This document shows positions 58,166-59,242 of a DNA stretch of 64,000 bases, one piece after another. The stretch comes from Escherichia coli (GTDB taxonomy: Bacteria > Pseudomonadota > Gammaproteobacteria > Enterobacterales > Enterobacteriaceae), in NCBI RefSeq assembly GCF_030013595.1, contig NZ_CP122768.1. The stretch is one strand, 5' to 3'. Each line of letters begins with the position of its first letter. Position 1 is the stretch's first letter. The position numbers and the translations under genes are program-made. The notes beneath the pieces were generated by a model. It was given only the letters and a program-made list of their open reading frames with translations. It ran no database searches and had not been told where the DNA came from.

Positions 58166-58432
58166 ATGATGAGCTTTCAGAAGATCTATAGCCCAACGCA
58201 ATTAGCGAATGCAATGAAACTGGTTCGTCAGCAAAATGGCTGGACGCAGAGCGAGCTGGCGAAAAAAATTGGTATTAAGCAGGCGACGATTTCCAATTTC
58301 GAAAACAACCCTGACAATACCACGCTGACGACCTTTTTTAAGATTTTACAGTCGCTTGAACTCTCAATGACGCTATGCGACGCGAAAAATGCCTCGCCAG
58401 AATCAACAGAACAGCAAGATCTGGAGTGGTAA
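58166..58432 (+). CDS. hipB: HipB antitoxin (Xre-type HTH)
   Basis: ORF track starts at a TTG (58148); ATG at 58166 gives the 88-aa form MMSFQKIYSPTQLANAMKLVRQQNGWTQSELAKKIG... Confidence 0.9.
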   Translation: MMSFQKIYSPTQLANAMKLVRQQNGWTQSELAKKIGIKQATISNFENNPDNTTLTTFFKILQSLELSMTLCDAKNASPESTEQQDLEW

Positions 58433-59242
58433 TGCCTAAACTTGTCACTTGGATGAACAACCAGCGGGTAGGCGAGTTAACGAAGTTAGCCAACGGCGCG
58501 CACACCTTTAAGTATGCACCGGAGTGGTTAGCCAGCCGTTATGCCAGACCGTTGTCACTTTCGCTGCCATTGCAGAGGGGGAATATCACCTCTGATGCCG
58601 TATTTAACTTCTTCGATAACCTGTTACCCGATAGCCCGATTGTACGTGACCGGATCGTTAAACGTTATCATGCCAAATCCAGACAACCGTTTGATTTATT
58701 GTCAGAAATAGGGCGAGACAGCGTTGGTGCCGTGACGTTAATACCCGAAGACGAAACCGTAACGCATCCGATAATGGCATGGGAAAAGCTTACTGAAGCC
58801 AGACTTGAAGAAGTATTAACGGCTTATAAAGCAGATATCCCTCTGGGCATGATTAGAGAAGAAAATGACTTTTATTCAGGCTGGCGGCAGTTATCGACTC
58901 ACGCCATTTTACGACATCATTTCAGCATTTCCGGTATTGGGTGGCGCAGGAATACACATCAGCGATCTCAAACTGGCAATGGGGCTTAACGCATCCAAAG
59001 GCAAAAAAACGGCAATCGATAAAATTTATCCGCGACATTTTCTGGCGACAGCAAAGTTGCTGAAATTTCCGGAAGTGCAGATGCATGAAATCCTGAGTGA
59101 CTTTGCCAGAATGATTCCGGCAGCACTGGATAACGTGAAGACTTCATTACCGACAGATTTTCCGGAGAACGTGGTGACGGCAGTTGAAACCAATGTGTTG
59201 AGGTTGCACCGTCGGTTAAGCCGAGAATACGGTATTAAGTAA
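58432..59242 (+). pseudogene. hipA: hipA serine/threonine kinase toxin gene with an internal out-of-frame deletion
   Basis: N-terminal about 146 codons (MPKLVTWMNNQRVGELTKLANGAHTFKYAPEWL...IREENDF) and C-terminal about 125 codons (...FIQAGGSYRLTPFYDIISAFPVLGG...LSREYGIK*) lie in different frames; 811 bp from start to stop versus about 1.3 kb for intact hipA; junction in the T-run at 58870-58873. Confidence 0.8.

Follow-up and report, generated by a model that had tools for sequence, protein, structure and literature searches.

The hipBA locus beside dif

The DNA that we analysed is a stretch of 64,000 nt from Escherichia coli (assembly GCF_030013595.1, contig NZ_CP122768.1), referred to here as the window. 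The E. coli hipBA locus occupies its region 58000-59350, and the features of the locus are collected in Table 1. The consensus TATCCN8GGATA is the HipB operator and occurs at four sites at hipBA (PMC3376134); a pattern search of the window returned 4 exact matches, as against 0.06 expected by chance. The predicted HipB protein matched the NCBIfam equivalog NF007271 with 185 bits (the cut-off is 79 bits) over residues 1-88 of 88. The TAA of hipB and the ATG of hipA have one base in common, in the sequence TAATG at 58430-58434. Four features of a K-12-type HipBA module are thus found here: an HTH-XRE HipB encoded upstream, four operators, the stop/start overlap and a Couple_hipA domain.

The best database match was E. 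coli HCP5S3_I2 (pig faeces, UK), which has a normal hipA of 440 codons. Both hipB and the operators match exactly those of this strain, in which the operon is intact, and the operator region lies inside a block that is identical between the two. An earlier model reading of the letters and open reading frames (the sequence-only reading) had described hipB as complete (88 aa) and overlapping the hipA start, with its operators intact; these descriptions agree with our results.

The gene hipA is known to be adjacent to dif (Sinha et al., PMC5638614). In the window an undamaged dif, an exact match to the published E. coli site GGTGCGCATAATGTATATTATGTTAAAT (PMC3025954), sits 77 bp downstream of the hipA stop codon. 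GC skew is positive up to dif and flat beyond it, and the window therefore spans the replication terminus junction. No second dif-like site, which would mark an Xer-dependent mobile element, was found in the window at ≤3 mismatches.

Directly past dif, two open reading frames, 59462-60280 (272 aa) and 60306-60947 (213 aa), make up a split tyrosine integrase gene; the second matches an integrase model of 484 residues at positions 318-484. The split gene is annotated likewise in HCP5S3_I2, and it is followed by open reading frames of 799 aa and 144 aa that had no family match. The region is possibly an islet, now decayed, that was inserted next to dif.

Table 1. Positions of the hipBA features and of dif in the window.
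Feature	Position	Strand	Remarks
hipBA operator region	58031..58144	+	four TATCCN8GGATA sites, exact matches
HipB operators	58031-58048, 58059-58076, 58099-58116, 58127-58144	+	TATCCN8GGATA
hipB, antitoxin and autorepressor gene, intact	58166..58432	+	88 aa, NF007271
hipA pseudogene, native ATG to native stop	58432..59242	+	811-bp remnant
hipA 5' segment, nt 1-441, codons 1-147	58432..58872	+	100% identical to full-length hipA
Deletion junction, TTTT	58870..58873	+	left match through 58872, right match from 58871
Out-of-frame tail (YSGWRQ...GNGA)	58873..58989	+	38 codons, then TAA at 58987-58989
hipA 3' segment, codons 319-440 and stop	58874..59242	+	native frame untranslated; codon of Mg-binding Asp332 kept
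dif, XerCD chromosome dimer-resolution site, undamaged	59319..59346	+	28 bp, exact match to GGTGCGCATAATGTATATTATGTTAAAT

An internal deletion of 512 bp in hipA

The hipA remnant measures 811 bp, compared to 1323 bp in full-length genes. Sequence comparison with HCP5S3_I2 accounted for the difference completely: window 58166-58872 is exactly the hipB and hipA nt 1-441 of that strain, and window 58871-59302 is exactly its hipA nt 952-1323 together with the next 60 bp. The loss is therefore 512 bp relative to HCP5S3_I2, which is 2 mod 3 and out of frame. The two matching segments share a microhomology of 2 nt (TT) inside the TTTT run, so that the deleted interval can be placed anywhere from nt 440-951 through nt 442-953, corresponding to approximately codons 148-318.

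In the full-length gene the left flank reads GACTTT/CGC and the right flank GTATTT/ATT, where the slash marks the break, while the junction in the window reads GACTTTTATT. A join of TTT to TTT would remove 513 bp, which is exactly 171 codons and in frame; the frameshift in hipA therefore hangs on a single extra T. With collinear and identical flanks, an internal loss, a broken frame and a premature stop at 58987-58989, the gene has the marks of a pseudogene.

Most of this arrangement had been anticipated. The sequence-only reading had placed an 811-bp hipA at 58432-59242, with about 146 N-terminal and about 125 C-terminal codons in different frames joined in the T-run, about 0.5 kb missing between them and a stop at 58989 in the first frame. 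It had also called for an alignment to a full-length hipA, and that alignment confirmed the joining of two frames in the T-run and refined the figures to 147 N-terminal codons, 122 native C-terminal codons plus 3 junction codons, and a loss of 512 bp with 2-nt microhomology; the stop is the TAA listed in Table 1. A naturally short HipA homologue can be rejected, as both pieces are 100% identical at the DNA level to the full-length gene and lie in different frames.

We consider it very probable that this is a chromosomal hipBA locus in which hipA has been pseudogenised by one recent internal deletion of 512 bp, the allele coming from one assembly. Judging from the junction, the deletion would have arisen by illegitimate recombination (replication slippage or end-joining), and the likely partners are two short T-runs that have 2-3 nt of sequence in common. 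Direct repeats were also considered, as a source of either a deletion or an assembly collapse, and were rejected: the longest in hipA are 9-15 nt and none of them flanks the junction. One 9-nt repeat, CCGTATTTA, with copies at nt 167 and 947, reaches the right end of the deletion but explains none of the alleles observed.

Rarity of the allele and reliability of the junction

The flanks of the deletion are 99.96-100% identical to HCP5S3_I2. Window 52101-58872 differs from that strain by two substitutions and one single-base gap, and window 58871-64000 is 100% identical. A difference between G5 and G6 is the sole homopolymer indel against HCP5S3_I2 in approximately 60 kb of aligned sequence and, given this figure, the assembly is not error-prone.

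The G5 run is at window 56489, 2.4 kb upstream of the junction, where HCP5S3_I2 has G6. An ECSE_1600-family autotransporter gene upstream of hipB, which in HCP5S3_I2 is one gene of 5421 bp, is split in the window into open reading frames 52488-56558 and 56555-57955. The short run reflects either a second pseudogene beside hipBA or a homopolymer miscall. Farther away, an 8-bp unit, GGTTATTG, is present in an additional tandem copy at 19806-19813 of the window; at 20464-22105 the window is without the IS91 insertion that HCP5S3_I2 has in dgcZ; and at 43913-45074, in the lsr operon region, it has 1161 bp that have been lost from HCP5S3_I2.

A survey of other genomes for the same allele, a check that had been proposed along with the sequence-only reading, found the junction in none of 5,426 complete E. 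coli genomes. It was likewise absent from JGI metagenome contigs and from the GTDB representatives (one genome per species), and neither of the two predicted products had an exact counterpart among approximately 15 billion proteins. Since the allele is absent from these collections and matches an intact relative exactly in its flanks, it appears to be private and very recent. The allele has not been recorded before, although the kind of event is well known.

One alternative is that the deletion is truly 513 bp and in frame, TTT having been joined to TTT, and that the fourth T is a homopolymer miscall. The gene would then encode a kinase-less protein of 269 aa, HipA 1-147 joined to 319-440, comparable to products of 231 aa and 276 aa (“HipA N-terminal domain-containing proteins”) that other strains encode in frame. 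This reading is consistent with both reference flanks ending in TTT, with the removal of exactly 171 codons by a 3-nt join, with the other single-base homopolymer difference nearby (at 56489) and with the existence of in-frame alleles of such design elsewhere. However, the G-run is the only indel of its type in the 60 kb or so that were aligned, a run of four Ts is short for homopolymer errors, frameshifting hipA deletions (385 bp and 196 bp) occur naturally, and the in-frame junction is just as absent from the 5,426 complete genomes. We therefore regard a 513-bp deletion as unlikely, and the kinase is lost whether 512 bp or 513 bp are missing.

Another possibility is that the gap is an artefact of assembly or sequencing and that the true genome has an intact hipA. 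In favour of an artefact, none of the other genomes, metagenomes or protein sets that we searched had the junction, and HCP5S3_I2, the nearest relative, has an intact hipA between identical flanks. Assemblers collapse repeats; this junction, however, has no more than 2-3 nt in common between its two ends, and direct repeats longer than 15 nt are absent from hipA. Moreover, that such alleles are real and common is clear from the many deletions of this type that have arisen independently in nature. An artefact is accordingly very unlikely, and the recent 512-bp deletion remains our preferred explanation.

Consequences for the HipA protein

The HipA protein of HCP5S3_I2 aligns residue for residue with K-12 HipA in the PDB (2WIU, 3DNT), and K-12 numbering therefore applies. 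Full-length HipA has the Pfam domains Couple_hipA at 6-103 and HipA_C at 149-401. The left edge of the deletion coincides with the start of the kinase domain, and the first two-thirds of HipA_C are lost; the deleted residues, 148-318, take in Ser150 (the autophosphorylation serine), the Gly-rich loop VAGAQEK at 151-157, Lys181, Asp291 and the catalytic motif DGHAKN at 309-314, which contains the catalytic Asp309. A Hip kinase is defined by four canonical motifs in one frame (PMC8262856). In the window three of the four are gone and the Asp332 region remains out of frame.

The substitutions S150A, D309Q and D332Q each abolish HipA-mediated growth arrest (PMC3376134). Because Ser150 and Asp309 are deleted, and S150A and D309Q each have this effect, an active kinase cannot be made from this hipA. 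The sequence-only reading had predicted as much, along with the loss of the ATP-binding loop and the catalytic region, and the presence of VAGAQEK, Lys181 and Asp309 in the deleted segment, together with the mutant data, supports it.

From the native start codon, a product of 185 residues is predicted, consisting of HipA 1-147 and 38 unrelated residues. It may still bind HipB, as the sequence-only reading proposed. Its HipA part comprises N-subdomain-1 (Couple_hipA, 6-103) and 44 further residues, and it matched N-terminal domain models only (TIGR03071, 105.8 bits; PF13657, residues 6-103). The 3' segment encodes Ile319-Lys440, 122 codons, and with the 3 junction codons it forms an open reading frame at 58865-59242 (125 aa, ATG at 58865) that matched only the tail of HipA_C (model positions 144-212). 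No convincing ribosome-binding site was found for this open reading frame.

No downstream open reading frame has a Gly-rich loop or a catalytic motif; with no kinase after the fragment, the locus is not a split system of the HipBST type. It could still be speculated that the N-terminal fragment acts in the manner of HipS, buffering HipB or neutralising another Hip kinase, and that the deletion is a change of function: the whole Couple_hipA domain (6-103) is kept, HipS is homologous to N-subdomain-1 and neutralises HipT (PMC8262856), and the in-frame deletions found in the databases spare residues 1-100. We consider this extremely unlikely, however, since the locus has no partner kinase and its 3' remnant is without the Gly-rich loop and catalytic motif, the fragment ends in a nonsense tail of 38 residues, the allele is private and recent with nothing that points to selection, and 2 of the 5 deletion alleles known at the DNA level are in frame, which is near the one-third expected without selection on frame.

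Likely effects of the recent deletion

Loss of the kinase through the 512-bp deletion would leave the locus reduced to an autorepressed hipB gene, without HipA as corepressor. Cells that lose terminus DNA stop growing, as hipBA is degraded and HipA is released, and without hipA such cells keep dividing for several generations (PMC5638614). HipA-dependent growth arrest would thus be lost in this strain, also in cells from which terminus DNA close to dif has gone missing, and we predict from the sequence that the strain is without terminus-loss arrest and without any HipA-dependent persistence.

The allele is probably near-neutral. Its cost is likely to be small, since deletion of hipA has no reported phenotype under standard conditions (PMC3376134). 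As to why hipB survives, loss of the toxin would be the only viable first step of decay, as a prior loss of the antitoxin would be toxic, and the time since the deletion may have been too short for further decay. The description of the locus as a persistence toxin in decay with its antitoxin retained is thus supported; as the deletion is very recent, retention of hipB is in itself no evidence of selection for the antitoxin.

In practical terms, hipA calls for annotation as a pseudogene here, and lists of strains with a working HipBA persistence module should not include this one. The point extends to toxin-antitoxin surveys that score gene presence. These will overcount hipBA, because in roughly one complete E. 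coli genome out of ten under 80% of hipA is left, and many more alleles have internal deletions.

Internal deletions of hipA in other strains

hipA is present in some form in 5,408 of the 5,426 complete E. coli genomes, and in 559 of those 5,408 (about a tenth) less than 80% of the gene is kept. In complete genomes we found at least four further alleles in which hipA has an internal deletion and hipB is intact. A 627-bp allele (strain elppa9, hipA nt 327-953) is in frame, encodes 231 aa (WP_021523084.1) and is present in 77 of the 5,426 genomes; a 385-bp allele (CEA601S, nt 483-867) is frameshifted and occurs in 10 genomes; a 492-bp allele (EC_J_9, nt 377-868) is in frame; and a 196-bp allele (8178, nt 268-463) is frameshifted. 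A full-text literature search of open-access papers found no natural hipA deletion alleles.

We also searched full-length HipA against 5.8 billion protein clusters and inspected the best 120 hits (P0001-P0120). Of these best 120 hits, 78 were E. coli proteins that cover HipA from its first to its last part apart from a single internal in-frame gap, and they represent at least 74 distinct in-frame deletions of 22-94 residues. As controls we used two neighbouring genes, Sad (P0121-P0240) and LsrK (P0241-P0360), which have similar member numbers in their main clusters. Deletions of 5-15% of protein length were counted, a range that falls fully within the listed scores for all three genes. HipA had 52 distinct in-frame deletions of this size, compared to 11 for LsrK and 6 for Sad, so that its count is five to nine times those of its two neighbours. 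These counts, which cover in-frame alleles only and two controls, indicate but do not prove an excess of deletions in hipA. The HipA deletions concentrate at residues ~100-350, and the first 100 and last 80 residues are spared.

Other rearrangements were also seen among the HipA hits. Some proteins have internal tandem duplications, for example residues 1-381 followed by 145-440, and in others an autotransporter or LsrK is fused to the 3' part of HipA with hipB removed. The hits with rearranged loci are P0001-P0004, P0008-P0010, P0016, P0043, P0070, P0072, P0096, P0245 and P0249.

Three more in-frame alleles were identified at the DNA level: P0052 (147 bp lost), P0045 (120 bp) and P0108 (249 bp). 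Together with the window and elppa9 alleles, these make five independent alleles that resume at (T)TATTCAGGCTGGCGG, hipA nt 951-954, which corresponds to window 58871-58874. The left ends of the five are all different, and the right ends of P0052, P0045 and P0108 fall at nt 952-953. The 385-bp and 492-bp alleles similarly have a common right end, at hipA nt 867-872.

A strong hot spot at nt 953 was considered and rejected: 79 complete-genome records break within a 60-nt interval there, and 77 of them are a single lineage allele. Among approximately 80 database deletions, residue-level coincidences of end points were near a back-of-envelope chance expectation of about 13 pairs. The comparisons support a warm spot at nt 953, used by five alleles, rather than a hot spot.

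Two local features that might have explained the recurrent right end were rejected as well. The first is a hairpin, as a 101-nt DNA fold at this end was no more stable than shuffled sequence (z = 0). The second is a Chi-like octamer, GCTGGCGG, at window 58880, one base off Chi and 7 nt inside the retained right flank. Recognition of Chi is polar, and by this polarity GCTGGCGG would lie on the wrong strand to protect the right end from RecBCD entering at a break in hipA.

We suggest, tentatively and with the odds somewhat against us, that internal structural mutations strike hipA, beside dif, unusually often in E. coli, a pattern that is apparently undescribed. If so, it would reflect either recurrent selection to disarm a toxin that polices terminus loss, or dif-proximal breakage and illegitimate repair with preferred end points. 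The terminus is a zone of division-associated breakage (PMC5638614). Such breakage is a possible mutational cause of the many hipA rearrangements, selection against the toxin being the alternative. An excess of deletions with some shared end points, if upheld, would connect chromosome-terminus biology with a classical persistence toxin. The allele in the window is of low interest in itself, and hipA deletions beside dif, taken at the population level, might repay more work.

Comparison with known systems

The closest parallel to the window allele is the elppa9 allele, in which an internal deletion also removes the kinase core, hipB is intact, and the right end (nt 953) falls within 1-2 nt, both alleles resuming at TATTCAGGCTGGCGG. 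The two differ at the left end (nt 326 in elppa9, 441 in the window) and in their fate: the elppa9 deletion is in frame, so that a fused N- and C-terminal protein is predicted, and has become fixed in a lineage, in contrast to the private allele of the window. The CEA601S and 8178 alleles resemble that of the window in being out-of-frame internal deletions with little or no microhomology and an intact hipB, and RefSeq annotates both hipA genes as frameshifted pseudogenes. Their end points are different (nt 483-867 and nt 268-463). In O157:H7 the same locus has decayed in the opposite pattern, hipB and the first 254 nt of hipA having been lost while the 3' 81% is kept.

HipS of the HipBST system, a protein of about 100 aa, is homologous to HipA N-subdomain-1, which the fragment in the window contains (PMC8262856). 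HipS, however, is encoded by a dedicated gene upstream of an intact HipT, whereas the window fragment is an accidental truncation with no kinase after it.

[quoted passage not shown] Unlike the K-12 module, the window is without residues 148-318, its hipA frame is broken and three of the four kinase motifs are gone. By these comparisons, the window locus is a remnant of a K-12-type hipBA module and not a working member of the family.
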